64,000 nucleotides of DNA from Pocillopora damicornis (GCF_003704095.1 NW_020846109.1:372001-436000); one strand, 5' to 3'. Counted from the first letter of the stretch, positions 2,960 to 39,833 are shown. A program made the numbers and translations. Notes: a model not told the origin generated them from the letters alone.

Positions 2960-5311
2960 GACTGGGCGGTTTGGTTGTCTTAGCGTTCGCATATAAATGA
3001 ATCAAATAACAATTCGTTATACCAAACTCCACTAAAATATGTTTTGGTAATTTTAAGTTCATAATATTTGTCTTCTACTTTGTGGTGTTAAATGGGGATA
3101 TTTGCCTCTCTCTTTTCTTAAATTCTATAACCTATAATATGTACAACGTTATTGAAAGTTGACCTCTATGAGTGATTGAACATGTGCGACGAATTATATT
3201 AAAAACCTCTTTGACTCAGACCATGTAATTAAATTATTTCCAATTAAAAATTATGCATTCAGGACCCCGTACAAAAAGTCCGAAAGAACAAAAATTCAAT
3301 GTAAGCTTAACAATTCTGTATCTGACTCTTTTTATGTGGTTTGTTCACACATGTGTGGGATTCGATTATTTGAAATATTTCCTAACATCTTTCTCTCTCT
3401 CTTTTTAAATTGGAACAATTATTTTTCTGTCGGTCCACACAAAAATGTATGTCCTCTTTTTCCTTAGGAAATTAATTATAGTTTTGTTTCGCGGATGAGA
3501 ATTTTCATAATTTTCCGAGCGTTAAAGACATTAAGGTGGCTCTTTACAGTTTATGACGAACCGCCGTTGCTAGGAAACACAACTGATGAGAATCTGACCG
3601 GAAAAAAATAACTGTACGTTATAACAATATATTTTTTTCGCTAAGTACAAATTATTTGAAAAAATAAGGCAAATATAAAAGCAATTTCAATAAGTCTAAA
3701 ATTTCTTTAAAAGTCATTCGAGGTTAAATTGAATATGAATAAAAATTCTGATATTTTCCTTTAACGACCTCATGTTCCCCGTTGCTTCCTGCAAGGGTAG
3801 TTGCTGCACAGAACTGCAAAGAAAAAAGCTCTAACAAAAAAAAATCAGCGGTACCAAGGAGTATCTGATATTCATTGGAACATCAAAACACTAGAGACAA
3901 AAATATCAATTAAAAACATCTCTCGAGTGTGGCAAAAAAAAAGCAGTAGCCAAATATTCTAACCTAACCCTAATTTGCACTAGCCATTTACAAATTGAAG
4001 CTACTTCAAAAGAAGAAAAAGGCTCAAAATTTTGGGATCAAGTAAAAGGAATTACGCCCATAATCACCAAACGAGAACAGTATTAGTATTCAAATAAATT
4101 CTCCCCACTAATTAAAGAAGACATGTATGCAAATAGGTCAGGAGAATTTCCGTACTGATAACACAGTAAAAGTATTAAACAAGGGGGTGCGTACGCTGTG
4201 GAAAACATCTTAAATTATAAATACCGACTTGGTGTGTTTTAAGCTTACTAACAAATGTAAAATAAGACACCACTTGTGTGTTTGGTGTAAGGCATACACA
4301 TTTTACAAAACAACGCGTCGCATTTGCTACCTTAAAACCTGATAACAATTGTTGACGCACATGTCAAGGGAGAAGGTAAATTTATCTGAAAGCTGCCGCT
4401 TTTGAGATAAGGTGAACAAATTTTAACTACAAAAGTAGATCGTGCAGAGGAATCAATACTCCAAATACTGAGTCAAAGTATGAAAAAAACAACAACAAAA
4501 ACACAACTTATTCTCTCGAAAAGGAAAACATTTCCTTGAACAGTTGTCAACAATGTGTCAACAGTTTTGGGTAGCAATTACGGTTGCAATAAAATTCAGT
4601 GGAAAAATGTAAATTAGATGGAAAAAAAAGTTACCATAAGTAATAGATAACTTGTTTTTTAACGATATCATTTGCTCAGGAGCCTGTGAAGTTTGACTTC
4701 TCTCCACGAGTTAAGATTTAATATATCTATGATGTAGGAAAATTTTGTATATGTAGACAAAAGGAATCTTAGTTTAGACTCACTGCGCATACGAGTTTTG
4801 AAAAAATTACTCTAATATTCATGTTGTAAATATTTATGTAATATATTTATATATTTTGGGCTGGCATTTCAACCGCTCAACCTTGGGTTATTAAACGCTG
4901 GTTTTTACCAAGGCTTTCATCACCTCAGTGCATTCAATAAATTCTTAATGTAACGAGGGAAAATTATTAAACCTATAACTACAAATTTGAACCATAAACC
5001 TAATGCATGAAAAGGTGCCTTTAACTAACATTGTTATTCGAACTTTTACAACTTCTAAGCATGCTCATCACCAACTGTTCTGGGAGAGCGAAAACAAAGC
5101 AGTCGGCGAACGACAATACAACATTTTTGTTGACTTATAACGACCTAATGTATTTTTTTTAACTCTTCCCATTGATTAATAATTCATTTACCTGGGAGAT
5201 TTCTCTTCATTCGAAGTTGAATCTGTGTTTTCATTTGAAGTCCTTTTAAGCATCGTGAATTACCGCTTTACGTTATCACAGCTGGTTGATGCTGTGTGCC
5301 AGTCTCCCTCC

Positions 5312-8300
5312 CTAAAGACTGGTACCTGATAAATGCTCTGGACTCAGCCCATTCCTCTCGGAGTCACCGTTTAATTCCTTGACACCATTCGTCACAATGC
5401 TGATGGGGCTTCCCGCCATACATCGAGGGTGCACCGGCGAACCGATAGGTCCCAAAGGATTGGCACCATTGCTGACGGCGACTGCAGCCGCAGCAACTGC
5501 AGGAGCAACGGTCGGAGCCGTTGGAGATATTGAGGAGCTTGGGGAGAAGGCCAATTTCAGGGTATAGGATCCGCCTCCTAAGAACAACAAAATAAAGAAT
5601 GTTTGAACGAGTTTTCTTTTACACCATACAGTTTTCGACATAACCTTAACAAAAACTTCAAACACAACAAACCAAGGAAAATCCCCTCCTTTAAAACAAT
5701 TTGGTGAATGGGGCTTATAATGAAAATATGTTTTACCTCTACAAAAAGTTGTTTCGAAACTATAAATGGTGGGTTAAGGCAACCTTTACCAGGAGGAAAA
5801 AGTTCCATCCAATAATAAATTAAAATAAAATAAATAAATAAATAACCAAAGAGTTTTATCACCTCATCTAACCTGGATGGGACAAGGACTTGACTTTACT
5901 AATCCCTTTTTATTATACAGTGCACAATGCTAAGACCGTCTGTCATGATGACGACAGCGGAAAGTCACACCACGAAACACAAATCCTATACAAACCCATC
6001 CCGCGTGGGGTGGGCGGAGGGTAAGGGTCCCACAACCGCACAACTACCACTAAAAGTACAGTCTCCCCACCCAACGGAAGATCGTTTTAGGGGGGTCCAC
6101 ATGGTGCACTGAAGGGCGACTTAAGTTTGTTACCTGGTGGGTTTATGGTGAAGTGGTTAGTAAGAGTTAACGCTTCCATGGCTGAACGAATATCCGGCAT
6201 CTCCAGTAACCCCGCTGATGATTTGGCGTTCGCTAAAATTTGTACAAAAAATGAAGAAAAAAATATTTGTAAGTTGTTACTCTGCTTGGGTCTGTTACTA
6301 TAAATACAAGGAACAGTTGTTTTGACTCAAGTGAACGCGAGATTTTGAAAAATGTCGTCATTCCAGAGATCTTCCCCAACCCATTCCCGTGAAATCTTCA
6401 AAGAGCAATCTTCGAGTTACATCTGTTCACAATTCTGTGATAACCAACACTGGTGTGTGGGGGGGAAGAAAGGGTTGGTGGGGAGGGGAGGCTGGAGGTG
6501 CTGCAGCTTACTATGAAAGTTTTCTACCAAATTGGACGTTTCTCTTCCACATTTTGTCTCAGACTGTAGGTGTGGCAGGGTCAGGGTAAAAAGTTGTTCT
6601 TGAAAAGAAGACAGAGCTCAAGAGAGCATGTTTAAATACAATACCAATAACATCTTAACTGGTCTTGCCTTTTGAAAAGAAAGTGCCTTTCAGAGGAGAC
6701 AAAGATCCGGCAGTGATGAAGACCTGCAAATTAGATAAACCAATCAATTATTCCCAAAGACTGGCTAAGAGAACAGGGGCAAGGAGCGAGAAAAAGCTGA
6801 ATGAAACATGACCCCTTGCCAGATAGCAGGAAATGCTTCTTTAACCTTACTCCCAAAACGTTATCGGGCAAATCAGCTCATTGTAACGTATACCTGTTGC
6901 TAGAGACTCACAACAAATTTAACCCAGATAAGACTCGAGCTCTGTCTTAGAGTCGGAGGTTCGCTCACGCTTTGAGAGTTGGAAATTCTTGGGCAAATTT
7001 CGGCATCAGTGAACGAAAAGCTGTTCTCAAATAACTGGTAAATAATCTTTGTAGACTGACCTCCTTAAGCGTTTCCACAGTACAGTTTGGAGGGGCATTG
7101 AAGAAGTGAAGCATTCTTGTTGGTGGTTGGTATCCTAGTTACAAGTTAAGGAATTTACTAACTACCTTTTTATCTCAATGGACAAGAGACTTGTCACATC
7201 CCCAACAAACGACTTATAATATCGAATGCCCCTTTGCTATGAGTACGTTCCAAAGAAAGGAGTTTAAAGGGGACCTTTTCATCGGTAAGTTAAACCCACG
7301 CGTAATCAACTTCCAAATTGACGAATGCCCAGAATTCTGCATTAAAATAGGAGCTCACAGCAAAAACCCTTTAACCTGTGCCAAGCGCAGAAAAGAGCCG
7401 TAACTTCATCGCGAGTTAGTTTTGGTTGGTATCTGATTGTTTTGGAAAGAATCATTAGAGAATTTGAAAAGGATACTATTCTTGAGACTCTGACCCTCAG
7501 GAAGACTACGAATAAAACAAAGAAACAAAATTAGAGAAAGGTAAGGTAAAGTTGTACCCGAGTCAAGAGGACTACAAGGCGCAGCAGTCTACACGAGAAC
7601 AAAGGAAATGATCACCAACTAAAGAATCTCTTAATTGTTAAACAAGTTCTCCTTGTCAGCAACTTAAGAAATGTGTAGAGAACATGCATACTGATGTTAG
7701 GGTGCAAAGGATTCATACTCTTGTTTAGAGAGAAGCATAATGAGAGTTAAGGTGTCTTGCCCAGTAATACAACACAATGACCCGACCAGGTCTCGAACCA
7801 GGGCCTCTCGATACGGAGTTTAACGCGCTAACCATAAGCCAAACGCGTCACCTTATATGGGAATTGTGTAGCGGTATCAACTACTCATTCCTGTAAAGAA
7901 TATGAATCAAGTTCGCTGCTCTAGGTATTGTAGTCTCACGTTGAAGATTTTAATACTACTATCACATTTGGAAAGATATCATGTGAAGACTGAGCCTGCT
8001 GAAAGCTATTTTTATCTGCCAGTAGTCCGCAAGAATAAAAAAGTGAAAACTTACTATTTAAACCGGTTGTTTCGGTTGTCAGCAAAATTCATGGACGAAG
8101 GCGTACCATCGGGTAAAGTCGTCACCACCGATGAATCTGCTATGAAAGGATGCTTCGAAAATCTGCAAGTAGTACAAAAGTTGCATTAGGTACACCCTTT
8201 TTTTTTTTTTGAAAGTAGTGCACTCAAGACACTGCTTCATAGTATAGAGACTGATAAACAATTCTTATTGTGTCGTTGATCGTGTTGGAAAGCACTGGTG

Positions 8301-11300
8301 ATAGAAAAGTTTCACAACAAGCTTACATGATGTTGATTTTGGAATCGAAAAGCACGGCACCACTCAAGTTTCGGATGATCATTTCTGAAGCAACTTTGTC
8401 CGACATTTGTACCATGGCCGCTCCGAGTTTGTTGGTGAGGAATTTAACCTAAAAAACACAACCTTAAGTTTAGTTCAAGAAGTTTCTATTGTCTGCTTTT
8501 GAACCCTACATGGACGGCTTTTGCCATTCAACAAGTATACTTTTCCAGACTGAAAATTTGACCAAGTTGTAACACGAACATAACGCAGCCGACAAGGTAG
8601 CAATGCAAACCTACTATAGCACTTACTAGGTTGGAAAACGTTCTAAATATTCTGCAACACAGGTTAACCCAGACAAAACGCCTTGCTGGCTACAAGACAT
8701 TTAGCCAAGTAATTGAGTGCTATTTACGGAATAAGAGAGAACTTTAAACTTTTCCTTCAATTCAAACTTTACCTCTATTTTTGTTCACTAGCAAAAAGAA
8801 AATGACAACGTGTGTAGTTTTTGTTGAGTATGTACTCTGAATGGGTGGTTACGTCAGGATTTGATGGTAGAATCACCTGGTTTACCCCGATTACTAGACT
8901 CGTCATACCCCAAGGTTTCCTCGAAAAATTTGACTTTGAAACATTAGACACATTTTGAGCCACGTTTCCCACAATTTTATAACTTCATTTGCCATCTATT
9001 TACCTTGACGACGTTGCCATATAGACAAAACAAGTTAAAGATTCTCTCACAGTTCATTTTTTCAGCATTCAGTCCGTAAACCATCAACACACAGCCAGTA
9101 CCACCTTAAAACAGTTGGAATTTGTCAGTCTGAGTAATTAAAACTTAAATTTATAATTTAAGTGACCCTAAACATCATGCAAAGAAAATGGCCGTTGGAA
9201 AGTGGATTAAGACAGATTTGGCAAAGAGGAGGGTTTCAGCTAACAATTGTCAGGAAGCGTCTCACAAACCTGCGTTCAAAGCGCTAGAAATGCCATTCAT
9301 CTGTTGCTGCTGTTGGGCCAGGCCTGGTAGAGCTCCTAAGAGTCCACCCTGAGGTAACTGGTACGGCGAGCTTCCAAGAATACCCAACTTTTTCACTACA
9401 TTCTCCACAGGTGAGTTGCTACCTGATGTCACAGAGAAAGCAAATGTAGGTTCAGCAAACAATATTGTTGTAATTCTACGAATCAAGATTACGACAGCTT
9501 GTCGTTGCTATTTTAAATCTTCATTGTAACTGGTGACCACAGATATCTTGGGATTCAGTCCTCAAGCGATATCCACCCTCACTGCCAAAAGGAGAGGTAA
9601 CACAAGAGCATGAAACCCCACTCAGGCTTTAACTTACGACCAACTGAACTTAAATTGACATCATCAAAATCTTGAACTCATCTTACTCTGAGCAATCGTT
9701 ATTTGGAATCCTTCAAACACAATCCATCCTCACATTCGTTCATTTTAAAATGTGTTGACGCATTAAGTGTAAAAGGAAAAGACGAATAAGAAAAAATAAA
9801 TTCTATTGTCTAAATACCTGATGTTGGACTCTTAGGCGGGTTCCCATGAAGAGATGCAACTTTGGCTAGAATACCTGAGAAGTGAGAAGACAGTTGATTC
9901 CAATGAGTTGCCTCTTTTATTCACGCAATTCCTTATTTTAGTCGATATATAACAGCATCTGTCTATGTACCCCTAACAACAGACACAGAGGAGCATACAC
10001 AACAACCATTGTCTGGAAGAATCCTTTAAAATTAAAGTTATTGATGTGAAGGAGGCTCTGTTGAAAATTTTCCAGGGCTATTTAAGACGTATAAAATCAA
10101 ATCCAACCAGACTCAGACATTCAAATTCATGCTCCATGGATCTAGAATAACATCTCATGAGAACTCACAATGAAGGGTAAACAAGTCTGAGGATGGTTGA
10201 GGGAGATTACACTGACCATCCACGGACACTTGAGATATTTGGGCAGAATTGTACTTGATGCTCGACTCAGACATGTGAAAGTTCCCTATACATTGATCAC
10301 CTATGTGAGGCGTGGTCTAATAATACAATAAGTTATAAAATAAAATTAAATCAATCTCACTCTGTACAGTGGGAAACTGCGCTGCTCTTGCAATAGCCTC
10401 ATTACTGATGGAAATTGGTGATCCATTCACACCTGACGGAGAAATTTAATGACATGAGACCACTGAATGTGATGAACACGTACTGTTTTCCTTACTTATA
10501 CTTCCCCCAATATTAATATTCCTCCTTGAATCCATGACCCAATACCAAGACTTAAAAGGCCTGGGAAATGAATTATTGAATTAAAACTTTCAGAGATTTG
10601 CAGGAACCTTGACGTAACGGCAAATCATTAAACAAGACTCATGGCATGTGTACAATTGTTACTCAGTCATATTACCATTAAGAGTGACAGTGTTCGGTGG
10701 TGAACTTGACAACTGCGTCTCACTGGCATCATTTCCTGGAATCATAAAATGAATGAAAATTTCATTGTAAAATTAAAAGATTCAGTTACAATGTACTTGT
10801 AGCATGATAATGCATAAAGTGCAAATGAAAGTTCTGCCTCTGTTGGCATGTTTGTTTATGAAAAATAAAATGACACATCTTGTCATAATTTGTTACTACT
10901 AGTTTCCAGCTACTGTGAAAATCCTGCATAACCAAAGGAGGACAATACCATGATACTCATTGTAAAAGGGAGTATGGGAAAGGGAAGGTTCTTCTCCCTC
11001 AACATTATATAACCCCTTGTAAAACTGGCCCAGTATACATTCAATACTTGCAACAATGAGGGGGACTGGTAAAAAAGGTGAGAGAATATCCTGTCTTGCT
11101 TTGTCATCCCCAGGTTTCCTTTCAACTCATCATTCCCCTTTTCTTTAGGACTTTAGGATGGGGGGTGAGGGGTGATTACTTACTTCTAAAGCCTCTCAAC
11201 CCAAAGATTTTTTGACCCTTGAAGTTCTTGTTTTCTCTTTTCCTCTATTTGTTTTACTAATTTTTTCCTCACTCTTTCCCTAAATTGTTTCCTCCGTGCT

Positions 11301-14300
11301 TGTGTAAAAAGCTACAAATGAATGCAGTTACCAGTGCTTACCTGAAATTGCAGACAAGAGCCCAGACCCAAGAAGAGCTGTCTTGCTTGGGATCCCTTGT
11401 AAGTGTAGAAAATAATACGTTAGTATGAAGGTGACCGAAAATCATTTCCCTTTTTCTGGTCAGCAGGTAACATCATTTCCTATCCTACCAATTATTTCAA
11501 ATGAAAAATGTGTGCTTGTAATAAGGTCACCACACTAAGCATTAATTCACAGGGACAGATAATGTTGTGCATATCCTTCTTAACTTGTGATTGTTTCAAG
11601 GAAAACCTAACTCCGAGGAACAAAGTACACAAAAATTATCCATGTTACCCAAAGCAAATTGCCTGCAACTTGTCCTCGCATGAGGTTCCATAATTCTTTG
11701 TATATTACTTGTGTTTGCTTCTAAATTTTGCTCTTACGAGATCCTTAAGGAAGTAGCTTCTTGCTGGAAAATTATTGACATGGGTCAGGTAGGTCTCTTT
11801 GTAAGACGTTACCTGTTGATCACTTGTCTAAGTTAAATCTTACAGTTCTTTGGCTACTCAGAGAAGTGGTAAGAGGATTCTAGCCAAAGGTTTAAGGTTC
11901 TACTGCTTTTACAAACCTGAGTTATTGTTCAGTGCTCCAGTGTAATCCCATGTTTCATCATCATTTTTAAAAACATTTAATTTTTTAGCTTTCTGTTGAG
12001 AAAAGGGAAAAAAATCCATGATATGTCATCTGGCACCAAAGAGTATTTGAGGATGTTGTATCCAGTTTGTCCTTGCTATCTTTGCATCACCTGAACTGGT
12101 TGAGAATCATCTTTCAGAAATGCAGTTAAAAAGTTAAATAGTTAAATTTGAATTCTATAACCAATCACAGATGTGCACTGAAATGGGAAGAAGCCCAGAA
12201 GGACCCATAATTCAAAGCTAATTACCTTTGAATAATCAATCTTCAGTGTGCAGCATCCCGCATAAATATCTTGTCCATTGAGTGTTGCAAGAGCTCGCTG
12301 AGCTGCCTCGACATTGTCAAATGTGAAAATGGTCAAGGATAGGATATTTGTTAAATATATAGATTCCACATAGCAGTGCCTCTGTTCAGCAATTGATCGA
12401 TGATTATGTCAAAATGGGGTAAAAACAAAAACACAACCCACGAAAATGTCACCAATGTTCTTACCTCAATTTTGACGCCTTCTGAGATCTTCCACTGAAG
12501 ACGCACCCCACCATGGAGTCTACCTATTTTATTTTATTTTTTTTATTTCTATTTTTTTATTTTATGACAAGGAGAATTTGTTTGACAATCAAGAGCTGCT
12601 TTCGTTGGTAATCATCTCCTCTATTCTTGTGACTTTCATGTTAGATTCAGGGGTGATATTGTAAAGTGAAATTGGATGTTAGTCTCTTAGGGGCTAAAGA
12701 GTTAACACATTAACTGAACAACACATGACCTTATCCATCACTTTTAACACAGTTATGTTTTGGGGCAGATAAAGTAGATTTTTTCATTTGAAATAATGGA
12801 ATTTATCAAAGGATATTCAACCAAAGCTTGCAATCCATTCTTGTGAAAGATCACAATTCTTAAAACTTTTCCATGAGGGCTGCATATTTTATGAAGTACT
12901 TTCTAGAGACAGAAACAAATTAAGGAGAGAAATGTTGTTAAAAATACATCAAACATCTGGCAAATATAAAGCAGTCACACCTGAAAGCTGAATTTTCATT
13001 TCCACTGCACAACTCTCATTTGAGAGAAACTGAACAGGTGGAATCTGGAGGAGAGGGGAACCTCTGTGTAATAAAGTGCCTCTAAACAGTAAAGGAAAGA
13101 AGATTACAAAACAAAGCACAGAATGCAGTGATCACCCTAACACAGGCTGTGCTGGTGAAATTGTTATTTCACCCTCTGAAAAACAAATTTCAAAATTCTA
13201 CTTGTTTTTGAGTAGAAATTTTTGAATCTGAAAAATAAAAATCTCCCTAGCTTCAGCAAATATGCAAATCTTTTTGTTTATGGTTTTCTTTTCAAACATG
13301 TTTGTCTGTCCACAGAAATTCTAATAAAACACCAAAATCTCATTAAGATTTTCTGGCCAAATCAGGTTGTCACCTTGGATGTTCTCTACATTGTGTTTGA
13401 TAAAAGTTCAGAAGCTAATCAGATATAAATTTAAAATCTCAGTGAGTTAGGTTTCCCAAGGTCATAATCTGTGGAATGTCTAACATTCCTAGAGTACTGC
13501 TTTTCTGTTATGCATAACAAAAAAATAATTTCACACCAAGATTTCTTTGATAAAGATACTTCTTATAATCTGTGATCAGTTTAATCAACTTATCGTCAAA
13601 AATGATCAGAACATCTTTTATCTGGAGGTTTGAGAAATAAAATTTCTAAAAAAATGAAGGGATTCATTTCAACTAAGCCTGCTCAGATAAGAAATAAATC
13701 TGTCTTAGAATTAACATGGAAAGTCCTTATCAAAAATTTTGTTGGAATATTTCCAAATTTAATTACAATCTACTGAAAATCATGAAAAGCAAATAATTTG
13801 TGTTGTTCTTTGAACCTACACACTTTCTTGTTGTTTTAGTAAACAGTTAGAGATATCCAAAAAATATGCTAATCAGTGTTGAAATGCACGCTGTGAAAAC
13901 TATTACAAGTACACAAAAGCTTTCTAGAGGAAGAAATTAAATTATACTATTTTGCTCAAGGTGTTTTCAACATAAAGCCCATAATAATTAGAGTTATTGT
14001 GATTAAAATACCTTGTAAACAGATTTAATTATTGAAATAACCACCACCTGTCAATCAGACAGTTTTCATTAAATTTACTCAATCAATAATTGATGAACAA
14101 TTGGAATAATTTTTGTTCATCATCAGTGAGGGAAGAAATTTAAAACCATGTACTACATCAACTGTGTGTTTCATAAATTTAAGTCTATTCCAGAAGCCAG
14201 TTAAAGAAAATCACACCACTATCTCTGCACCGGAAGACATAGGCACAAAGCCACTTTATCCACTCTAAATGTTTCATGCAAAAATGAGAAAAATTTAATG

Positions 14301-17300
14301 GTCATTTTGTGCTTAGTGTAGCCTCCATTTGTAGCAAAATTTAAACTTTCTGTTTCCATGAATTGTACAGCCAAAAGTATACCAACATCATTGGTGAAAT
14401 TTAAGTTTTGTTTCAAAGACATATAAAGTTAGAACCATGCTACGTGAGCTTGACAGACTACAGTCCATGCAATATTAAGCTTCTCTTGTCAAATACTTGA
14501 AATAAAAAGCCACTAGCCTTCAGAGAATGCAGAATGTCTGGGCAGAAAAGGTGTTTATGAGCTCTTACATGTAAATGCCTTAAAATATTTTTTGATTTTG
14601 AAGATCATATTACTCTAGGAATATAACCTTATCAGCCCAAAAGGTTAGTATGGTTAAGTTTGACCAGAATTTAGCCTATTAGAAAGACATATGCATGGAT
14701 TACCCAATACTAGTTTCTTTAACTACATTAATTTATAGACAAGTAACCTTGCCAATATATATGAAGTCTAGAAAATAATAATGAAGGAAAACTGATCTTC
14801 TAGCATGCCTGAAACAAAAAAAATTTCATTTTTGCATGTATGCTAACAACACATTCCACAAGACATTAAATTACTAAAAATTTCATGATTCTTAAAGAAA
14901 AATCTATGCACCAAAATTTTTAAACTTTGCAATCTTCAATTTTGATTTTCTCTTGGATCTTTATGACACTTACCACTGTGATTGGATGTAAAGGATTGAT
15001 TATTGTGAGAAGGAGAATATTACTAGCTTCTGAAGAGGCTCCATTACTTTCACCATTGAGAACTTTATCCCTGTAAAAGGAAAGAGATTCTTGATTAGTC
15101 ACAGGCATGATATGCACACAAAGTTTCTAAGGTTAAACACAGTTTGAGTAGGATTTAGCGCACATTTTAACAGTGTCAGAAAAACCAAACAATAGAGCTG
15201 TAGGTTCAGACCACACCCAGACCTCTCAATCTAAGGTTGGAAGCCCAGGGTCACTATTCAGCCACTGTTTATCCCTTTAACTCCCAAGATCTCATTAATA
15301 ATTCTCCTTACTGTCTACCATACAGTTCTTGTCATGTTAGTTTGGAGAATTTGTATTGGGTCAACTTGTAATTCCCTCATTAATATTTTTTTCTTTATTC
15401 TCATCAAGTGTCTACTTGATATTGCGTTGATATTTTAAGGCAAAATTCTGTCTTGCTCACTCATGGGAGTTAAAGGATTATGAGAAAAAAAGTCAAGTCT
15501 TTGCAAGTGGCCCATCCAGCCTGAGCTAGTCCCCATTTCTGTTGCATGAAGCAGTCAGAAGTGTTGCTAGTACCCCTAGATGAGGTACACGTCCGGCCCA
15601 GGTTACCACCCCCCTCCCCCTCTCCTTCTCCCCTTCCCCTGTATTTCCACAGGCTTCAATGATAGTTAACTAGTGCCCATTTGTACATGTGGATGGAGAG
15701 AGGTGCTGATAGAGTAATGTCTCTTGTCTAAGAACAAAACTCAATGACCAGACCAGATATCGCACATGGACCCTTTGACCCAGAGTCCACCATCCTAAGC
15801 ATTATGCTGCTACATCTGTTGCACACAGCCAATTTTACAATCCCTGAGAAAAAAACTTTAAAATATGGGACTGAAGAAAATAGAGACTACTGAGTCAACA
15901 GGAGAAAGGTGCAAAGTTTCCCTAATGTGTTTTGGTTTCATGTTTTGGATACAATGTAACAAACGATTCTTTGTTATCCATTTTACACATTATGGGTTGC
16001 AACATTTGATTAAAAAATATATTATTACAATTACTATTTACCTCTTTATTTCTTGACTTTTGGAGTAATTCACGAACATTTGTCTACCAAGTACAGTGAG
16101 TGTATTTGACTGTACAAGAAAGAGATGGTCATAGTTATAATTATTCTGATTCAAACAAAATGTTTTGGCTTCAATCAACCACACAGGGAAAAGCATATCC
16201 TTGCAAGCAACTCCTTTCTTTCGACACACTGTCACAGGGCAGAAACTTTTTCCCTGCAATCTGCACAATCTTTCAAAGAAGTTTCCAATAAATCTATCAG
16301 ACAAGGCATTTCTAGATATGGGCGTCTTTTTCTACGGACTGTCAAACTGAGTTTCTGTAAAAGCAAGGCATTTTCCATTTGTGTACATCAACCTCACTCA
16401 TTTTACCAGAGTTAAATCCTAGAGACACAAGTTACTAATGCTTTAATGTAAAGAGAATGCACATTGCTGAATTGCCTCCTTGAAAATGTACACAATCACA
16501 TACGTCTCACCTGTGAAAATGAAACCAGAGCTACAGCAGAATCAATATCCTGTGGAAATAATGAAATACAAATATTTGAGCTGTTACATGCAGCTTTCTC
16601 TAACATCTTTCGCCTAAAAATCACACACAAACTCCACAAATTTAGGCATTGAGGTGTGTATTTTGTGGTTCAAACCAAAAGTACATTATTCAATTCATAA
16701 TCACAGTTTTTAAATGAAAGAGAACAAAATCAAACTGGTTTGAAAACTTTCTGACCAAAATATATATATTATTTTTTACCAAAATTGATTGATATAAATT
16801 TTTTACTTATCAAGTAAGAAAAATGCTTATTTTTCCTCGTAAAATAAACCTAGAAATATACTTAGATCTGAAGTAATTGCCACTCCTCAATGCTTCTCTC
16901 GATGACAAATGATATGAAAGGCGAATGCTATAAAAGGCTTGGGAGTGACTGCTCACAAAGGAAATATCTTTTGACAGGTATCGAAGATTACCACACTAGT
17001 ATCCTTGGGTTGGTGCCAGACACGAACATTTTACATAGCAGAATGTCAAATTCAGCAGGTAAAGATACATACCTACCTGCATAATCTCAAAGTTGCTTAA
17101 TTACAAGGTGTGGTATATGTACATTTGTCATGAACAGGAAGCCAGTTTTAGTCATGCAATTTCTCCATCAACCGGGGATGTAATTAGATGCAAGAGCAAG
17201 TGGTTCAAAATGGAGTAAATACAAAAACTTATTTTGTTATTGTTTGACTTCTGTTCACTGCTGTAGTCGTGCCTTTTAACATGTTGTACTCCGATTTTCA

Positions 17301-20300
17301 CAAGAAGAAATTTATCAAACAAAACCTGCCTTAATATTCACAACTGAGTTCCTAAATTTTGAATAAATTTAGAAGAAAACAATAAAATTTGATCAAAAAC
17401 ACATCTTGGCCCTAGAAAATTTCAACCACCAATAACTTAAAGGAAAGAAAACTTTTCAACCCTCATCCATACTTTTCCACCACAAGGAACTCAAAATGTG
17501 GAAAAAATTCCAGACATACAGATCTACATGCTTAAGTAAGGTTTTTAAGATGTCTAGATATTTAAGGCTGGCAAACCTACATGGATTTGTCAAAATGTGG
17601 TAAAAATTTCCCAACATCAAATCTACATAATACATGCTGAAGTAATGTTTCTTAGACGTCTTCACATTTATGGCTGACAAACCAAAATGGATTTAGTGGA
17701 CTTACACAAAATTCCTTGCTGAGATTCAACCTCTTTATCAGTCCCACCTTTGGAAATTCTAAGCTCACAATCTTATTGCCAGTCTAGGCAGATTAAAAAC
17801 AGTCCGCAACCAATTCTAAACATAGCAGATTTCAGTTTCCTAACTTAAAAATACATTGGCAACAGTGCTGTTGCTTTTATGCCAAAATGGTAATTTGTTT
17901 CATTTGTACAAAGGAAAGCGAGTTTAAATTGGACATTGAAATAATTCACTGCTCATTTGAATTTACATGTACTTCTCACCATATCAACAGAATAGTTGTA
18001 AATATCAAACTTGTCGCACATTAATTTCCTTAACATAACATAACATTACATTACCTTAAAGGGGGCAGAGAGCCCTAATTTAAATGTATACTGCCTTTAA
18101 TAAGTATCTAAATTATGTATTACTTGGCTTTGCCAACTTACTTCAAATTCCACCAATGCTTGTCTAATTTTTGGCAATAAAGTCACATATCTGCATTGAA
18201 AAAGAAAAAACATATACATCAGGCATTGTCACATGATATGCATCACTAGATAATGCAATGCATTGAGTAGAGGTTAAAAGAGAAAACTATTTTAGCACTT
18301 CAAAGGAATTCTTAGATGTTACCGGTCTGTGACTAAGGGTTAGGGTTAAGGGTGCACATGCAAATTTCCCTTTAAAGAGTGATGTGAACATACTGACAAA
18401 CCAACAAGACTATTCTCGACTAATGATAACAGACCAAATTCTACAAAACTTATAAACAAGGACATTTAAAGTGGTAAGAAATGACAATTGTCAAATATCA
18501 TCCAAGGCGTCAAGGGGATAGGCTCATTTTCTCCTCCCTTTATTACTGTTAAATCTCTCACAACTTAAAAAGGCACATCACCATTCAAGCTCCCCACCCC
18601 TGGCCTCAGAACAACATTTCAAAAACCTTGACATCATGGACCACAGGTAGTTTTAGTTTACATGTAGAAAGTAAGAGGATGATGAGTACCACAATATTGC
18701 AGGCAACATTGAGATTGTCGAACAGAAATGAAATTGTGAATCAAAATGAAATTGTCTTCATCATGCCATTTTAGTTTCAGGTGAGGGCTTTGCTTAATGA
18801 CTATCCAATGCTTTTAGCCAAATGGTTCCTGACTTCAGTTTCAATCTAAACTCCTTTCTACAAGATTCTTACCCTAAAAAGTTGTTTGACAAAGAAAAAA
18901 GAAAATCCTCAGGGAATTCATGTGGAGATAAAATGTTCCCCAAAATAAGTAACCACCCAAACACATGGGGTGAATCTTGTCCTGAGTAAGCAGCATCTAC
19001 ATGTGTAATTTTAGGAATGATTCCTGGCTCAAGAGCCAAAAGTCTCCTCTTGTGAGAGGACAAAACTGTTGATCTAATGTTCAACTTTCCAAGAAACTAT
19101 GAGGCTAATTGCCAAGTTCACAACCAAACAAATTCTGCTTGTGACACAAAAATTAGGAGATAAAGGTTGTCTTAATTAAGAGACACACCTACAGAGATGA
19201 GAGAATCATCTATGTAAGACATGATAATAGTCCTCTTAGGTTTTATTCCTATCTCTTTGTGGACTATGCCCCAAAGTGTTCATAAAATTTTTCCAAACCT
19301 ATACAATGATGTTTGTTAATGAATTGCTCTAACACGCAGTAGTTATTCTGGGGTGGCACAAAACTGAATAAATACAGTACCATTGATAGGAAACAAACTC
19401 TTGAAGGTCCCATTCTCTTTGAAACTCAGAATAGTTAAAATATCTTTTACTGAGCTCATTTATATCCTGGATGTAACATTTGTAACTTGTAAGTGATCCT
19501 CTGCCTTTTGCAAACAATATGTTGACAGCCACTATTAGTAGATGAAGTCATCTACTCAAAGAGTGAAGTAACTTTTCCTGTTATTAAATCCATGCAGGGG
19601 TTTCAAACTGTTTTAGACCTCAGAATCTGAAAAAGTAGGTGACTGTGCATAGTTCACTAAGGGCTAAAAGGTAATTATTTTGAGCACAATAACTGACAAC
19701 ATGTTATCACGTAGCCAGCGGAACTCCAACAGTCACCACACTTGTTTTGAAAACCCCAGCCATGGCACAAGTTGTCTTCAGAGCAGAGTCCACTCCACTA
19801 ATTGTTCAGATACCATACCTTGACACCATGTGATGAACATTAAGTAGACAATTATGTATAGTGGAAGTTGCACAATTAATGCTGCAGGGCATTTTGTCTT
19901 TTTCACTCAGGAAAAAAGTTTTAAGGACATTTAGGGTATAAACTTTTACCTGATAGTAATGGTCAAATGTGAGCTCTTACAGGCAGTCACTAAAAGTATT
20001 ATTTGAATCAATCCTTGACCTCCACAATTTTTATGTGAAAAAATTCCAGTTATGCCAGTTATGAAGTTTGGGAGTACCAATTCAAAATTTTTCAAGTGGG
20101 CCTTGTAGAGCAGTTGACTACAAACAACCAGCTTTTATTGAAACTCTTGTGGTCAGACAGGGAAGAGGCAAATAATGTAAGTTGTAATTTTGGCAGGGAG
20201 GCAAGGTGTTTGTAATGGACATTGGAGATCTAATAATTCTCTACCTACTAATTCACAAAATTCAACTGCTAAATTTCAGTGTGCTGAGCCATTACTTTTT

Positions 20301-23300
20301 CAGACACAGAGATTAGTTTCCTTCAACTTTGTTACTAAAAGAGAGTCCTTCTTATGCTGAATATGCAAGTATGGGAGCATTCTTCTCCTCTGCCATTTCT
20401 TGAGAATGGTAACAAGTTATTGAAAGAATATATATTGTTACTCCAGAATCCTTGGACTTTATGCTTAATTGTATATAATGAGCAATCTTTACTGCAGGAG
20501 GCTCCTGTACAATGTGATTAACTACAGTTGCTAATTACTAAGCTTTTAACCCGGCGCCACAACGGAAATATTCTCATTAACAGAAAACAACCAATTTCAG
20601 ACAAAAATAATCCTGTACAAATACCTTTTAAATCAAGTTGGATCTTACATCAACCCCAAAAATATGAGCAGAAAATAGAACTTGACCTTTGCCTTGTCTA
20701 ATTTGTTTTGTCTCTTCCAAAATTCATAAGCAGTGGGTGCACATACCACATAAATTCACCGACTCTCAGCTAATACAACAACATGATAGCCACAATTTTA
20801 AAGTATGTCAGACTAATTAGCGAGTCCATTAGTACTTTATTCTCAGGAACATGTTCCCGGGTGAGAAAAAGGAACACATTTAAAACTGCCATGTGCAGAC
20901 AAAGAGAAGCTCCATGTATACATAAAAGAACAAAGCATCAGAAGTCATTTAGTAGATCTGTTTTTAATTGTGGAGGGTTCTAGCACTTTCAGCTAATCAA
21001 AGATAACTTGGAGATTATTTTAAACCCATCCTCAAAAGCTGACATTCTCCAAGGCATTGGCAATTCCATCATCCCCCCTAGCACCTTACGGTTTCCGGTT
21101 GAGATGAAAGAAAACAAAGCCGCCTGTTTGGACACAACATGAAAGGTCAATGGAAGAGAACAATGTAACATCTCCACATTGAACAAATTTCCTAATTGAG
21201 ATAAGTTTACTATTCAAAATACGAATTGAAAAATAAATACACAATTGAACTTCTCACATCACAACAGAGAACAGCAGTGTCTAAAGTACTCCTACTACAG
21301 ATTTACATTCAGTGTTAGGCATTAAGTTACACTATACTAGAAATTAAGGTGTACTTGAAAAGGCACGAAGAACAAGACACGTAAAGGCGAAATGCCACCC
21401 TTAAATTTGCCAAGATGAGGAAAATAAGTTTAAAGGCTGTCTAAATATATCTGATTGCTAACTCTTTAAGTCATTGTGTTTACAACTCTGATTGTGGCAA
21501 AAATTTTCATCTGTCTGAACATATGCAAAGGAGTGGCGTGACCTTTTACATGCAAATGAACATGTAAATGACGTATGTACATTATCTTGTAATCAACAAA
21601 ACATCTGCATGTCATATCCTGTTACTGAATTCACAAACTATAATAATCATATGCTGCATGAACAAAAGTTTTAATAATAACAAAAAGTTCAAATAGATTG
21701 AAGTATTACAGCCATTAAAACCTGACAAAATAATGATATAGCGACTAAATTTTCCTTGGGTCAGCATGGCCACTTACAATAATATTCTGTTGATATCAAA
21801 GGTCAGAAGAACAAATATCAAAGTACTAAGTCTGCTATACTATAGTGGTGATTGACATCCAAGCTATTGGAGCAAAAAAAAACTGCCCTAGTGTGGGAAA
21901 AAAGTAAACATACATATGTACTGAGATTCTGGAAGAATCTTGCATAAATGCCAAAGATTTGAAATTTCTACATTTTGAAAATGTTTGATCTTGCCAGTTG
22001 ATAAAAATCCACTGACAATATTCCAACTACAATCTTGTAGCTGCAAATACTGGCTTGACAGTGAGATAATGATCTGTTTTTAATCTCCAAGGAGTAGTGA
22101 AATAAGAAAGCCATTAGGATCTGTCAGTTGCCTCACGTAATTTTCTGACAATTCCAGGTATTTAGAAGATTAACATGAACTTTGGTTGCAGAAAAAACAG
22201 CTATCACTGAAATAGACAGCTGCATACAATCAATTATTTGAAGCGTGACTGAAATTATTTGAAGAGCAAGCATTGGGGACAGATATTTAAAGCCTTCCTT
22301 GGAGCAATGCCAGAATTCTTATTCTTAGCTATGTGTTGAAAATGTTCTCTCACTTTAGTTTCAAGATTGTTATTTTGGATCTATGACACACACATGAAGC
22401 TTTCAGAAAGACCAACACCACTTCAAAAGCTTTTTAGATTATCCTTTAGCTGTAAAAACTTTCCTCATAATACTCAGAATATAGGTCTATGCCATGGAAT
22501 GAACAGACAGAGAGGAAGCAACTTTAGGAGATCAAAACACAACAGAAGAGTTTTACATTTTACAAGCAATTAACAAAAGGAAAAACTCACATTCACCCAA
22601 AGGCTTGCAGCTGACAAAACATTTTAAAAGCAAGGCATAATACATTTTTTAAGACAATTTGGTGCCATTTCAAAAATATATCTGGCACAAAAAAGGAGTT
22701 ACATGAACTATATCTTGAGACAGAAGTCTGAAGGGTAGTAGTAAATTATGCCTATAACTTTAACTAAATGAGAAGTGATTTATGTTCTCGTTTCAGCAAA
22801 GCTCAGAAAATTGGCATTTTGGTTCAAATAAGGTCCATGTGGTATTAAAATTCATGTTTTGCTACCTGAACAAGCCCTTGTTATTTTAAAGCCTTTGACA
22901 AGGAATTTCCGGATTTTTCAAAATTTCATTTAGTTGCACACTGGAATCAAGCACGAAACAGTCCTTTTTCATAGAATACCTATTCATAATAAACACTATC
23001 AAAGAATCAACCTGAAAACTCTTTAAGGCTGCAAGATTATTCTATCCGAAAAATTTAGACTGAGAATGAGTAATCTATGACCCTTTAACTCCCAAGATCT
23101 TATCCAGAAACAGCAATTCTCCTGTCTAGCTCCAACAAATTTCCTTGTGAGTATGTCTTGAGAATTTGGTACTACATCACAAGAAAACATGATAGTTGGT
23201 AAGTTTGTACATACTCAACCCTTTTTGTTGGATAATATATAGAGTTAAAGGTAAGATTGCTTATCAGAATTAAAGAGTCAAATGCATTTCTGCAGAAGGC

Positions 23301-26300
23301 AAAGAATTTTTTTTTTTCAGAAAAGTGTAAAATGTCTGATCTTTGACCCTTTTTTTCCATGAAATTCAGACCTCTGTCAGCTTTCAGCCTTAAAAGGATA
23401 TCAAACTCTCAATTTTCTTTCCACTGGTAATGAACAGGGCAAAGAGAATGATTTCAATGCTGAAGAAATGCTTTCCAGCAGTAAAAGTGCTAAACTGAAG
23501 AAATATCAAACATGGTTTCAAATGTAACCTACAACTTATGTTTTTGATCAGTTCATTTTTCCAGCTTTACCCAACATGCAGCATTATTTGGGATTGGAAA
23601 TATAACAACGCCTTACCCCCCCTCCTACCTCCCCATCATAAATGGCTATATAGCACAATATTTCCCATTCCTGATGCCATATATCAGCAAAACCTTTCAC
23701 AATTTTGCCAAAATATACTTTAATATGACGCCTCACTTGAAAAAAACATGCAACCCTTATTGAATGCTAAATTTAGAACGAAAATGAAAAGGTGACATTT
23801 AATGTAACATCAAGAAAGTATTGTGCAATCAAAAGGAGACACATGTTTTACTAGGCAAGAAATTCAAGAATTATTAGTAACACAATAAATTAAAGACATA
23901 TTCAATGACTTCTTTTTCATTGAAAAAGTCTACCTTCTATAAGCAGGAGTAAAAGCAGAAATATTCAGTGGATTACAACTCAAACTTTGATTAAACAATT
24001 GTAATGAACAATGATTAAAACAAACTCATAGAAAAATGCCAAAAAGTAATTTTCACCGCATCATAATCAGTTTGAAACACTTTTATACCATGAAAACATT
24101 CCTTGTCAGTAACTTCCTACAAAAAGAACATCTACTGGATAAAATATTCTCTTTGTACTTACGTAATTTTCCCAAATGGCTGAAGAACGTTTATCAAGTC
24201 TGTTTCTTTACAACCGTCTGCAACTGCTCTACAGTGAATAACACGCGAAGGAGGTGTATTGTGATGTGCCGTAGAATTTAATGTCAATGATTGTGAAATA
24301 TTGAGACTTGAAGTTGATGTCAGCGCAGAAACAGATGAGCTTGGAGATAATGAATAGTCTGAAAAGAAATAGGTGCAATAATTATTTATGAACCCAAGAG
24401 CTCAAATAATGAAAACTAAATACATACAGATCTTGCTTGCCACACTCAAATCTTCTGTGTGGATGAACCCCCACAAATCTGTAATTACTAAGTAAGCAGT
24501 ACAGTGAGATGCAAAAGTCTTCACATTGATCAAGAACAAGACATATCTGTTTACAACTTGTTATTTCTGAAAAGAAGACTAAGCAGTAAGCTTTTTTTTC
24601 CTGAGAAAGAGTCAACAATATTTCTGAATAACAGGATTTTGTAATCAAGTGTATTTCTGGTTTTCATAATATTCTATAGATCTGATGACTTGCATTGTAA
24701 TTTTGGCAGAAACCACCACAACAAGCATACAGCTGTATAAAGCATCTAGATTCTCTGCAGGCTACTCAAGAACATTAAAATTTAAGCACTGTACACACTA
24801 AAGAAAAAATCCACTTTTACCTAAAAAACATTTTTCTGCCTGAGGCAAGCATTTGGCACTTAAATATAAAATCACTAAGTATTCATTTCTATCCAATAAA
24901 TGGAAGTTGAATGGGCACATGAACAATCACAGAGCTACAAATCAAACCAGTGCTTTAGAAACATCTGCTCAAAAAGCAATCAATTTTTACAGCCAAAGTT
25001 TTGTCTGAATAATGATATGTCTTGAAAGCAAAATTAAGACATAACTTGCACTTCTTCTTTTTTTTTTAACTGGCACATTTGCAAAGTGTCTAGAGCAGAC
25101 ACCAGTCACATACAGCTTCCTTTTAATTTAGAATTCAGATACATGTCAGAAGACTGGATATTAGAAATAATTTTTTATGAGGTCTTACATAAAAAATTAT
25201 GTACTGGGTATGAGAGATGAAAATAATAATAATAATAAAATTATACACTGGATATATAATTCTAGCATATTTGCAGCAAGTATAGAATGTATATTCCCCT
25301 TAAACATGTTCTTCATTACGTAAAAGACTAAAAGAAATTCAAAGTAATGGCCAAATAGTATACAAAAAAAATTGTGATAAAAATAATTGAACAAAATTGG
25401 TAACACCTGCACTATTCACTAAAGGAGCCAACTTCCCAAGTCAAATGCTATATAATGGGCTGTCACAAATTTTATTGATGGTCTTGACGAAAACGTTGGT
25501 TCTAGATAAGTTGGAAGAATTAAAGGCCATTTAACCGTGGACCATGACAAATGTGAATAATTTCACTTTCTCTTGTTCACTATTTCTAACCAGGGGGCCA
25601 TAATTACTGAGAGTACAACTGCATTTTTAAGTTTACCTAATAGATCCTTCTAAATGACAGAATATTGATTTTCTATGGTAGAAGCATAAGCAAATAACAT
25701 TTCTGAACAAATGAAAGTCTGAGACAAATGCAAATTTAGAACAGTCTGAAATAAACAGACTTTCTATTGGTTGAAGGATTCTGATGATTAAGTAATGCCA
25801 TTTGTCCCAGCATCCTATACACAGCAAGCTTTTCTTTAGACTGAATGACTGCAGTAGTGTTAGCACCAAGCTTAATTATGTATCATCTTAAAGGAAATCT
25901 TCCCTTCTCATTTCAATACAACATTGTTTTCAGAATGCATTCCTTGTGGTCAAAACTATATTGTGGATTAAATATAAGGAAATATTACCTGACTAAAAAA
26001 AAATGTACCTCTTTGCAAAAGACTGATAACAAGCAATGGTGCTTACTGGTTCACCAAAAAAAAAAAGGAAGGAAAACAAAACAAAAAAAGAAATTAGGTT
26101 TAGGAAAGGTCTAATTGAAAGGCCAAAAGCAAGTGTTCAAAGACATTCTTAGAGAGGAACAAGACACAACATCTAGGTTCTCTGGGGAAGAGCCCAATAT
26201 TTCCCTTTATCTCATCGCAGAGTCCTTAATTAACAAAACCATTTCAAGAATACTTATGCATGTGTTTTGATTACCAGAAGTCATTCAAGGTAAAAAACAA

Positions 26301-28077
26301 AATAATTCTGATAATTCTCTTCTAGAGAAAAAATTGAAACACCCTTTAACCGCTGAATTTTGATTTTTCAGTAGGATTATTTAAAAAAAAAAAAAAAAAA
26401 AGAAGGGAGACAGAATCAACCATTTAACACACGCAGGATAGATTTTTTTAAAAGTCTCTAATCAAAGTCAATTCATATTGATGTGGTATTTCGGAGCCAT
26501 AACAGAAGTGAAGATAAATGACATTGTAGTAAATCTCTTTCCATTCACGATTTAAATAATTTCCATATTCATGAATTCAAGTACATGCACATTCCAGGCC
26601 TATATTCCAAATATACACTCGTCGATGTGGATCGAAGAGTTTTATTATTCCTAGCCGGACATAGTTAACCAATAATTTCACGCTTTAGCTGTTGTCTTCT
26701 ACGGACTTAGAAACGAAAACACAAGTGCTAACAATTATCTGCTCGAGCAATAATTGTGTTCAATGGCTATAGAAGTGGATTTCCTTTATATTTTAATCAA
26801 AGTAACAAGAAAAGAAACAGCATTGTCAACAGAGAAAAATAACGGTTATCAGGACGCCGTGGAAAAAGGTAGAGTTGCAGAGCTTACGAGCCAGAACAGC
26901 GGCCCGTAAATTTATACTAGTAGATTAAAAACCCCGATTACTCAGCGAGAAAAGCCTCCACGATTTCTGCATGAAAGTAAACACGATATTGCTTTAAAGC
27001 TCGCTCATTAACATTTCCATTCATATCAGCAAGGCTAAAGAAGTGTACCATGTACAATTCACACGTCAGGCGATCTGCGATCTCTTTTGACTAAAGCAGA
27101 TTATCAGAAAATAAACAGACGCATTCCACGATTCGTTGTACAGCTGGTTTTCAATCCACGTATCAGTGAAATATATCCTTCTTACAACCTTTCAGGAAAA
27201 GCCGTGCCAGACATAGCGTGGTCATTGAGTCCGTAATAAATGACAAGGCACAGTAACAGCCTTCAATAGTGACATTTCCTCACGAATGAAACACGCACCG
27301 CTAAAGGTTCGAATGCGCCGGGTCCCAGAGCAAGCTTTTACTTGTTTTTTAGCCAAAGCGGTACAGCATTCATAGTTTATTGACTAAACGTGACATTCAT
27401 TTAAAAATAGATGAATTTCAAAGTTTAACAACAATATTAAGACAACAGACTAGGAGAAGCAGACGCGCTCAAAGGTAATAGTGTCCTAAGAACATTAAAC
27501 TCTTCTCGTGCACGCCCTTACTCAAGAACACATTACAGAGCTAATTTCCTCTCACGAATTCATTCTTGTGCCTAAAAGCCTATATGTTCGGCCGCCAAAA
27601 TGACGCTACAAAACAGATTACCCTCCTTTTACGATGAAACTGAGTACGCCATCTGAAATATTTATGACTTCTCGAGTAACGCATTAAGCGATATCAGAAG
27701 CGCAAAAGCTAAAAGGAAAGTCGCATACCGCTACCTGACGTCGAGGAATATTCTGTGCTGAAGCCATTCAGTGCGGTGTAAGGAATGCCATAAGATGCGG
27801 GATATGTGTACAAAGCTGCTGCGTCTGTTTGTCCACAAGGATACGTGTATGATGAGAAAGAATTCGAGTACGTGTAGGGGTATGAATAATATGCTGATGT
27901 ATCACTGACAACTGGTCCGGAATGTGAGCTTACGGGAGAGCTCACTGTGTCCGTTCTGTAATATCTAGCGAATTTAGATTCATCGAAGTTAGTTGCTGTT
28001 AGTCCACTATCCATTTTCGCCCGCTTGTTCGGGCTTTCGATTCCTGGAGTCGCTATCATAGCTCCAATGTCAGCCAT
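5312..28077 (-). CDS. HNRNPL: hnRNP L / hnRNP LL-like 4-RRM splicing regulator, 22 coding exons, ~766 aa
   Basis: Phase-consistent exons (5'->3'): 27735-28077, 24163-24358, 18142-18190, 16511-16549, 16042-16109, 14974-15070, 12817-12902, 12226-12322, 11917-11992, 11342-11395, 10676-10735, 10361-10432, 9818-9874, 9270-9422, 9004-9104, 8327-8448, 8055-8162, 7477-7505, 7061-7134, 6669-6723, 6134-6232, 5312-5577 (sum 2301 nt). Diagnostic hnRNP L peptides: PSRVIHCRAVADG..QALVEFE; RIVIFHKNGLQALVEFD..LNGQDIYAGCCTLKIDYSK..LNVFKNDDETWDYT; VLMVYGL..MNCERIFNLFCLYGNVVKVKF; MLHFFNAP..SSAGLLE..YTLKLAFS. Confidence 0.93.
6233..6668 (-). other. GC-AG intron (intron 20 of the hnRNP L-like gene, within RRM4)
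   Basis: Donor AAG|GCAAGA matches consensus at the other key positions. It gives FFSK-ANAKSSAGLLE, collinear with vertebrate FSGKSERSSSGLLE (recalled). The only nearby in-phase GT donor (CCA|GTTAAG, 9 nt downstream) is weak. Confidence 0.72.
7135..7476 (-). other. U12-type GT-AG intron (intron 18 of the hnRNP L-like gene, just before RRM4)
   Basis: Donor ATA|GTATCCTTT and consensus branch TTCCTTAAC followed by ttgtaactAG, with no long polypyrimidine tract. Splicing restores KN-RYQPP. Confidence 0.92.
7537..7852 (-). mobile_element. tRNA-derived SINE remnant interrupted by a MITE fragment (hnRNP L intron 17)
   Basis: Minus-strand head GGTGACGCGTTTGGCTTATGGTTAGCGCG..GGTTCGAGACC (A and B boxes) followed by TTGTGTTGTATTACTGGGCAAGACACCTTAACTCTC. 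MITE-like sequence occupies ~7593-7713. Related decayed copies at ~15505-15810 (-), ~33830-33925 (-) and ~45580-45675 (+). Confidence 0.62.
12323..12816 (-). other. U12-type AT-AC intron (intron 7 of the hnRNP L-like gene, within RRM2)
   Basis: Donor GA|ATATCCTTT, branch site TCCTTGAC, acceptor ..cattttcAC|ATTTGAC. Splicing restores the conserved QALVE-FDN. Confidence 0.93.
15269..15481. mobile_element. Same TTAA MITE family, hnRNP L intron 5
   Basis: CCCTTTAACTCCCAAGATCTC...TGGGAGTTAAAGGATTA; the body aligns by eye to the 36773 and 42913 copies. Confidence 0.75.
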
Positions 28078-39323: not shown

Positions 39324-39833
39324 CTAGATGGCCACAACGAGAATTAAACGGTAGGGCAATTGGATCTCTCAAAATTTTTCGAACTTCTCACGCACACTCG
39401 GTGAAAATTTTCGCTCATTTTACCTCGTTTTCACGCTTTTCGCAACCGGAAGTAGCTCGCTTTTCCTGTGCTCCTGAAAAATGATAAATATTTCCATGCA
39501 GTCAGCGAATTGATCAAAAAGGGTTCAGCAAACAGACAAAAAAAAATAATGGAACAACATTAGAAACTAAGAGAATAAGAGATTTTTACTAAGAAACAAA
39601 AACTTTTAAAAGCTGGAAATAAGCAACCTCAGGCAACTTTGTGTGTTAATCATATATGACGTACTCACATGCTCACCTTTGCACTGCTTGCCAGAAACCC
39701 CAAGGGCACGTAAAGGGAGAGATTTTCTGCCAGTTTTATGCTTTAATACCAAACCTTATGTGTAATCTCGAGGTCATACGCTCCAATTTCACTGAAAGGC
39801 GGTTCTTCTCGATGAAATTCGATAAATACGCAG
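39324..39833. promoter_or_regulatory. Bidirectional promoter between UBE2G1 and the RRM-F-box-LRR gene
   Basis: 510 bp between divergent ATGs, ETS motif ACCGGAAGT at 39445-39453, locally CpG-retaining. Confidence 0.6.

Follow-up and report, generated by a model that had tools for sequence, protein, structure and literature searches.

Two U12-type introns in a coral hnRNP L gene

A 64,000-nucleotide (nt) stretch of the Pocillopora damicornis genome (GCF_003704095.1 NW_020846109.1:372001-436000; hereafter the window, with positions counted from its first letter) contains a gene of the heterogeneous nuclear ribonucleoprotein L (hnRNP L) family in which two introns carry U12-type signals: intron 7 (site A), with AT-AC termini, and intron 18 (site B), with GT-AG termini. 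The explanation that we favour, with considerable confidence, is that the coral expresses this hnRNP L gene, that the minor spliceosome likely excises its two U12-signal introns, and that both introns likely date from early animals without forming a dedicated regulatory switch.

The gene model lies on the minus strand, with exons running from 28077 to 5311, and comprises 22 exons that encode 768 amino acids with no internal stops. Its 21 coding introns consist of 18 ordinary GT-AG introns, the AT-AC intron, the GT-AG intron with U12 signals and a single GC-AG intron (intron 20, site C) (Table 1). The predicted protein shares 765 of 768 residues with the hnRNP L-like protein X1 of P. verrucosa (P0004) and 715 of 716 with a public P. 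damicornis model (P0005). Its PDB matches are to hnRNP L domains at an E value of 6e-48 and to PTB at only 1e-19, while the Pfam families RRM_5, RRM_8 and RRM_10 match single exons, with only RRM_5 exceeding its cut-off. On these comparisons the gene is a member of the hnRNP L family, with four RRMs nearer to those of hnRNP L than to those of PTB; the hnRNP L-like identity proposed in a preliminary description of this DNA thus holds, given the identity to P0004 and the hnRNP L matches in the PDB.

Among the 21 introns, the 5′ splice site RTATCCTTT occurs in introns 7 and 18 only, and exactly the same two (2/21) have CTTRAC within their last 30 nt; in both, the branch motif CCTTRAC lies where it is expected in U12-type introns, approximately 10-20 nt before the 3′ end. 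The predicted branch adenosine is located at -11 from the 3′ end of the intron at site A and at -12 at site B. From the motif frequencies of the window itself, the chance of finding both the donor 8-mer and the branch motif is approximately 2e-7 for a given intron and 4e-6 over all 21. The longest helix to U12 small nuclear RNA (snRNA) was also tried as a discriminator between minor and major introns and was dropped for the motif test; it spans 4-11 bp for all introns and is uninformative because pyrimidine tracts pair through G-U. Site A cuts the Glu codon of QALVEF and thereby splits RRM2. Site C has a pyrimidine-rich 3′ end and no U12 branch motif, so that with its GC donor in use and its U2-type 3′ end it has both marks of a U2-type GC-AG intron. 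It shares with such introns the pyrimidine tract, the absence of a U12 branch motif and a GC donor that follows a strong exon end, and we found no feature in which it differs from them.

Splicing was followed in RNA contigs from five of 22 listed runs, which as contigs give neither levels nor rare isoforms. The joints 6232^6669 (site C) and 7134^7477 (site B) were each present in four of four runs, from three studies, and a skip of 494 nt at site A in four of four runs from four studies, one of these runs being only guessed to be RNA. Joints may show a register play of 1-2 nt, which was settled by the splice motif: the joint at site A reads 12320^12815 with 2 nt of play, and AT-AC termini arise only in the +2 register (12322^12817). 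In three runs the shorter side of this joint covers 28 nt; in the fourth it covers 88 nt. At least 15 of the 21 model introns were seen among the joints listed, introns 1 and 2 lying outside the region compared with RNA. The preliminary description had placed all three introns on the minus strand with the coordinates and ends given in Table 1; these agree with the sequence, all three of its junctions (12322/12817, 7134/7477 and 6232/6669) are present in every one of the four runs that bear on each, and motifs and RNA joints concur for both U12-type introns and for the GC-AG intron.

These data also bear on whether the junctions were misread and splicing instead takes place at ordinary GT-AG sites, for example at site C, where an in-frame GT is indeed present 9 nt inside intron 20 (position 6659); the P0005 model, moreover, employs other joints. 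However, every run has RNA joints that omit exactly 494, 342 and 436 nt, and the P0004 protein matches across all three sites. A misreading, to which we give almost no credence, is refuted for the main mRNA; minor isoforms might lie beyond the joints listed or be dropped from contigs.

Table 1. Features of the hnRNP L-family gene in the window
Feature	Position	Strand	Evidence
hnRNP L-family coding span, four RRMs	5311..28077	-	Exon model, P0004 identity and PDB matches
Exon 7, 86 nt, RRM2 first half; 3′ end within Glu codon of QALVEF	12817..12902	-	Model and RNA joints
Intron 7 (site A), U12-type AT-AC, 494 nt, phase 2	12323..12816	-	Sequence, model and RNA joints
U12 donor of intron 7, ATATCCTTT	12808..12816	-	Sequence; 6-bp helix with the genome's U11 5′ end
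U12 branch site of intron 7, TCCTTGAC, predicted A at 12333	12332..12339	-	Complementary to U12 snRNA branch-binding region
Exon 8, 97 nt, RRM2 second half	12226..12322	-	Model, RNA joints and Pfam
Exon 18, 29 nt, end of RRM3-RRM4 linker	7477..7505	-	Model and RNA joints
Intron 18 (site B), U12-type GT-AG, 342 nt, phase 1, just before RRM4	7135..7476	-	Sequence, model and RNA joints
U12 donor of intron 18, GTATCCTTT	7468..7476	-	Sequence; 7-bp helix with U11
U12 branch site of intron 18, TTCCTTAAC, predicted A at 7146	7145..7153	-	Sequence and motif count
Exon 19, 74 nt, RRM4 start	7061..7134	-	Model, RNA joints and Pfam
Exon 20, 55 nt	6669..6723	-	Model and RNA joints
Intron 20 (site C), major-type GC-AG, 436 nt, phase 1, inside RRM4	6233..6668	-	Sequence and RNA joints
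Exon 21, 99 nt, RRM4 second half	6134..6232	-	Model and RNA joints

Minor-spliceosome components encoded in the genome

A search of the genome recovered snRNA genes above the Rfam cut-offs for U12 (100 bits), U11 (92.7 bits) and U6atac (104.6 bits), together with a U4atac candidate that, at 52.2 bits, falls 0.8 bit short of its cut-off of 53 and is complementary to U6atac. The 5′ end of U11 pairs with 6 bases of the donor at site A and 7 at site B, and with 3-5 bases of the other 19 donors. [quoted passage not shown]

The only U6atac found (L008:1501-1625, minus strand; G000:C1986:362277-362401) carries a CC variant of the donor-pairing AAGGA box; the usual form of this box is described in PMC8283771. 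We considered the altered box as a novelty and rejected it, as it equals the CC variant already described for cnidarians and left unexplained (PMC2396436). Canonical donors are spliced in the coral despite this variant. A second, degenerate U12-like copy (L006:1501-1665, in G000:C280), scoring 41 bits and damaged at its 5′ end, is probably a pseudogene.

A paralog with different termini at site A

The same genome contains a second hnRNP L gene (G000:C787:752116-762658), identical to the window gene at 210 of 477 residues, in which 11 of 14 modelled introns match the window gene in column and phase. Its splicing was modelled from sequence, and the model may lack linker exons close to an N gap. 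U12 signals are present at site A (755427-756067), which has GT-AG termini and a full branch site, and at site B (761303-761743), where the branch site is one base off the consensus; site C is GT-AG. A Stylophora protein (P0129) continues through sites A and B as this model predicts.

Site A is therefore AT-AC in the window gene and GT-AG in the paralog, at an identical codon and phase and with U12 signals in both, a clean within-genome comparison of the two subtypes at one intron. Because the window gene and the two vertebrate genes discussed below all have AT at site A, the GT-AG termini of the paralog would by parsimony be the derived state, and we infer that the site was originally AT-AC and would have become GT-AG in the paralog. 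Such switches have precedents, as 36 U12DB clusters are reported to hold both subtypes (PMC2831892); in insects, none was seen (PMC3291851). The coral pair resembles the U12DB clusters in that the termini differ at a shared codon and phase with U12 signals on both sides; it is unlike them in being a pair of paralogs within one genome, each with a second U12 intron.

Several further observations concern the paralog. In its read-through protein P0125, compared with L003:3172-3330, His replaces Arg at site B, which would imply a donor starting with AT, although this is a single sequence and could be an error. The 3′ part of the paralog has an inverted partial duplicate (L004; G000:C787:768748-770480, minus strand) that is 92-98% identical and interrupted by N gaps, and may be either a genuine duplication or a product of misassembly. 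A high-copy repeat family is present in several introns of the window gene (window 12520-12690, within the AT-AC intron, 7595-7710 and 15270-15480), and the repeat of the AT-AC intron also occurs in the matching intron of the paralog, with 72% identity over 147 nt.

Site A is probably catalogued in vertebrates, whereas site B is apparently unlisted

In MIDB and the supplements of PMC6717393, human and mouse HNRNPL and HNRNPLL are each listed with one minor intron, which has an AT donor after xGA. This confirms for HNRNPLL, and extends to HNRNPL, the statement in the preliminary description that HNRNPLL is a minor-intron gene. The coral intron at site A likewise has the AT donor ATATCCTTT after xGA and a U12 branch site, and the 12-mer listed for HNRNPLL is identical to the coral donor. 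Donor context agrees and the VEF motif aligns at the protein level; coral site A thus appears to match the minor intron catalogued for both genes in human and mouse. The coral intron measures 494 nt compared with 811-1672 nt in vertebrates, and the coral gene has two minor introns where one is listed per vertebrate gene. A nested U2 intron has been reported in HNRNPLL (PMC3564746, PMC8329584); none was seen at coral site A among the RNA joints in 11850-15150.

The novelty of the pair is accordingly partial: site A appears to be catalogued, whereas site B is missing from the human and mouse lists. Half of the finding is thus probably already on record, and site B is apparently an unlisted old minor-intron position, which adds to the history of hnRNP L a second such position beyond those lists. 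The view that minor introns usually occur once per gene also stands in part, since a second one is uncommon and yet not exceptional, with 770 human minor introns distributed over 714 genes (PMC6717393). Two U12 introns amid many U2 introns are likewise described for the SCN and CACNA1 families (PMC2831892); the coral host differs from these in being a cnidarian splicing regulator with one intron of each subtype. We found no literature on site B, nor on U12-type introns in Nematostella hnRNP L or on a coral minor-spliceosome hnRNP; the supplements of PMC7507305 and PMC6865273 contain no HNRNPL rows, and PMC2426677 yielded nothing relevant. The coral sites may already be in the data underlying PMC10639083, because P. 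damicornis is in its species list; that study, a broad survey, argues for neutral processes behind much of minor-intron evolution.

Distribution and age of the three sites

A metagenome scan yielded 29 loci, which are redundant and represent approximately four distinct exon-19 sequences per paralog. For site B, 11 of these were excluded from the count: L009 and L018 are spliced, L011 and L012 begin at the exon, L032 lacks the intron and six loci (L031, L033-L037) are non-cnidarian. In all 18 loci reaching the 3′ end of site B, CTTRAC lies 11-12 nt before AG, and the 13 visible donors read GTATCCTTT (10/13) or GTATCTTTT (3/13). Intron A ends in AC in the near-identical loci L024 and L025. In contrast to the GC of the window gene, the donor at site C is GT in all nine orthologous loci with the intron and in all seven paralog-type loci; L027 has no intron there, but its site falls at the contig end. 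Since GT is found in 9/9 orthologous coral loci, the GC donor is, on this distribution, recent and lineage-specific. It would represent a T-to-C change tolerated by the major spliceosome thanks to the strong exon-side AAG. As the GC donor is recent, the four intron classes of this gene are not an ancestral design, and the suggestion of an ancestral state is supported only for the two U12 positions, which look ancestral from the paralog, the corals and the tree.

Two loci depart from this pattern. The anemone-like genomic locus L032 has neither intron 17 nor intron 18 but keeps the neighbouring introns; joint absence of adjacent introns (L032:1506-1715) is what intron loss by way of a cDNA copy would be expected to leave. 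The arthropod-like L031 is without sites A and B and keeps other introns.

In a tree of 35 rows, the window gene grouped with anthozoan and medusozoan proteins (support 100/98), with the paralog outside this clade. An approximately unbiased (AU) test rejected the placement of both paralog lines in a single cnidarian clade (p-AU 0.010; 24 rows, LG+G4), a rejection that leans on one long-branch sequence, P0068. With two old paralogs in the genome and a base of the tree that lacks a settled order, the window gene is at most a candidate one-to-one orthologue of vertebrate HNRNPL. Because the paralog clade test and the presence of site B in both paralogs set a bound on its age, site B appears at least as old as the duplication that preceded the anthozoan-medusozoan split, and possibly older. 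Both U12 introns were likely inherited from an early animal ancestor; they probably persisted because such introns are hard to lose, and site B would have disappeared from vertebrates and from a single anemone-like lineage.

Alternatively, site B could have been gained on the cnidarian stem before the paralogs split and never have been present in bilaterians. Site B was not found in any bilaterian genomic locus, the arthropod-like L031 being without it; all four damaged site B models among 121 aligned proteins are cnidarian-type; and the human and mouse lists are without site B. The force of these absences is reduced, however, as L031 also lacks site A, indicating general loss, and as correct protein models leave no trace of an intron, so that absence is not readable from proteins. 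The AU rejection of a cnidarian-only paralog clade (p=0.010) and the rarity with which new U12 introns arise (PMC2831892) also argue against a cnidarian gain, which we consider the less probable course. This alternative bears solely on the age of site B and can be reconciled with most of the explanation favoured here.

Regulatory gating by the minor spliceosome

Intron retention at sites A, B and C is computed to introduce stops at residues 316, 628 and 652, respectively, and transcripts unspliced at A or B would probably undergo mRNA decay. The preliminary description saw in this gene a double gate by the minor spliceosome, and a selected gate of this kind would make the dose of hnRNP L depend, by way of retention and decay, on how active the minor spliceosome is. 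It would perhaps substitute for the human poison-exon loop, in which hnRNP L is autoregulated through poison exon 6A (PMC7547044). Consistent with a gate, sites A and B are retained in both paralog lines and their retention gives early stops; consistent with the substitution, the window introns contain no CA-rich (autoregulatory) cluster (at most 8 CA per 40 nt) and no extra exon joint was seen among RNA contigs in 11850-15150. Slow minor splicing has also been proposed to be rate-limiting, with SRSF10 as a precedent (PMC8329584). Slower splicing would mean less mRNA because retention stops translation, an argument that holds for most introns. In Table S6 of PMC11347168, the human HNRNPLL intron responds in one of nine human and one of six mouse minor-spliceosome perturbations but is unresponsive in the remaining eight and five, and many minor introns are reported to be efficiently spliced (PMC6717393).

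Contigs bearing introns 7, 18 and 20, and also 15, 17 and others, were rejected as evidence of retention because they are without levels and may be DNA. That they extend over major as well as minor introns argues against the double gate, as does the absence of site B from L032 and of both A and B from L031 while other introns are kept. The proposed gating is therefore not supported, and we regard a selected double gate as unlikely. A designed four-class arrangement is unlikely too, because site B was lost in the anthozoan-type locus L032 and the GC donor is recent.

Several points nevertheless weigh against ordinary, inherited U12 introns as the explanation. The tree has long branches and an unsettled base order and still allows an early-cnidarian gain of site B. 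The long persistence of sites A and B in each of the paralog lines fits selection for function equally well. The CC-variant U6atac pairs poorly with the donors at sites A and B. The human position is matched by the three exon bases of the listed donor and not by alignment. Vertebrates (human HNRNPL) are not known to have an intron of any kind at site B, the human and mouse lists showing only that there is no minor one.

A fuller version seems to us improbable: two minor introns would have been present in hnRNP L of the animal ancestor, and selection would have maintained the pair in both ancient coral paralogs as a double throttle that couples a master splicing regulator to minor-spliceosome output. 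If it were true, the presence of AT-AC and GT-AG versions of one intron in a single nucleus, spliced with a CC-variant U6atac, would offer a natural experiment on subtype switching and on how this U6atac reads donors. Were gating shown, minor-spliceosome control of splicing factors would reach cnidarians.

Annotation of the junctions in public models

The expectation that automated annotation would mis-model these junctions was borne out in some public models and contradicted by most hexacoral entries. P0005 breaks all three junctions: 7 residues of RRM2 are deleted at site A, and exons 19-20 are skipped, with the loss of 43 residues at the start of RRM4. The 121 aligned proteins include four with a damaged site A (P0005, P0008, P0053 and P0115) and four with a damaged site B (P0005, P0009, P0014 and P0053). 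In contrast, five of eight hexacoral entries (P0004, P0006, P0007, P0010 and P0011) are right at all three sites. The practical cost of such introns is thus the loss of RRM2 and RRM4 residues in one public Pocillopora model.

Other features of the gene and its neighbourhood

Exon 1 ends with a choice of two in-frame donors spaced by 6 nt (window 27728-27734), and P0004 and P0005 each use a different one. At the other end of the gene (window 5311-5330), the last three residues differ in P0004, implying an alternative final splice; RNA contigs cross 4500-5576 unspliced. The long RRM2-RRM3 linker (window 9270-11395) is made by five small phase-1/phase-1 exons (54-153 nt), which could be skipped in frame; no skipping was seen among the joints listed.

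The neighbours in window 28300-64000 were named by inspection of open frames. A plus-strand gene apparently lies head-to-head with the hnRNP L gene. The region also contains an RRM exon (39816-40184), an F-box/LRR-like exon (44062-44544), a multi-pass membrane protein (51942-53039, minus strand) and a two-pore potassium-channel-like gene (60715-62847, minus strand).

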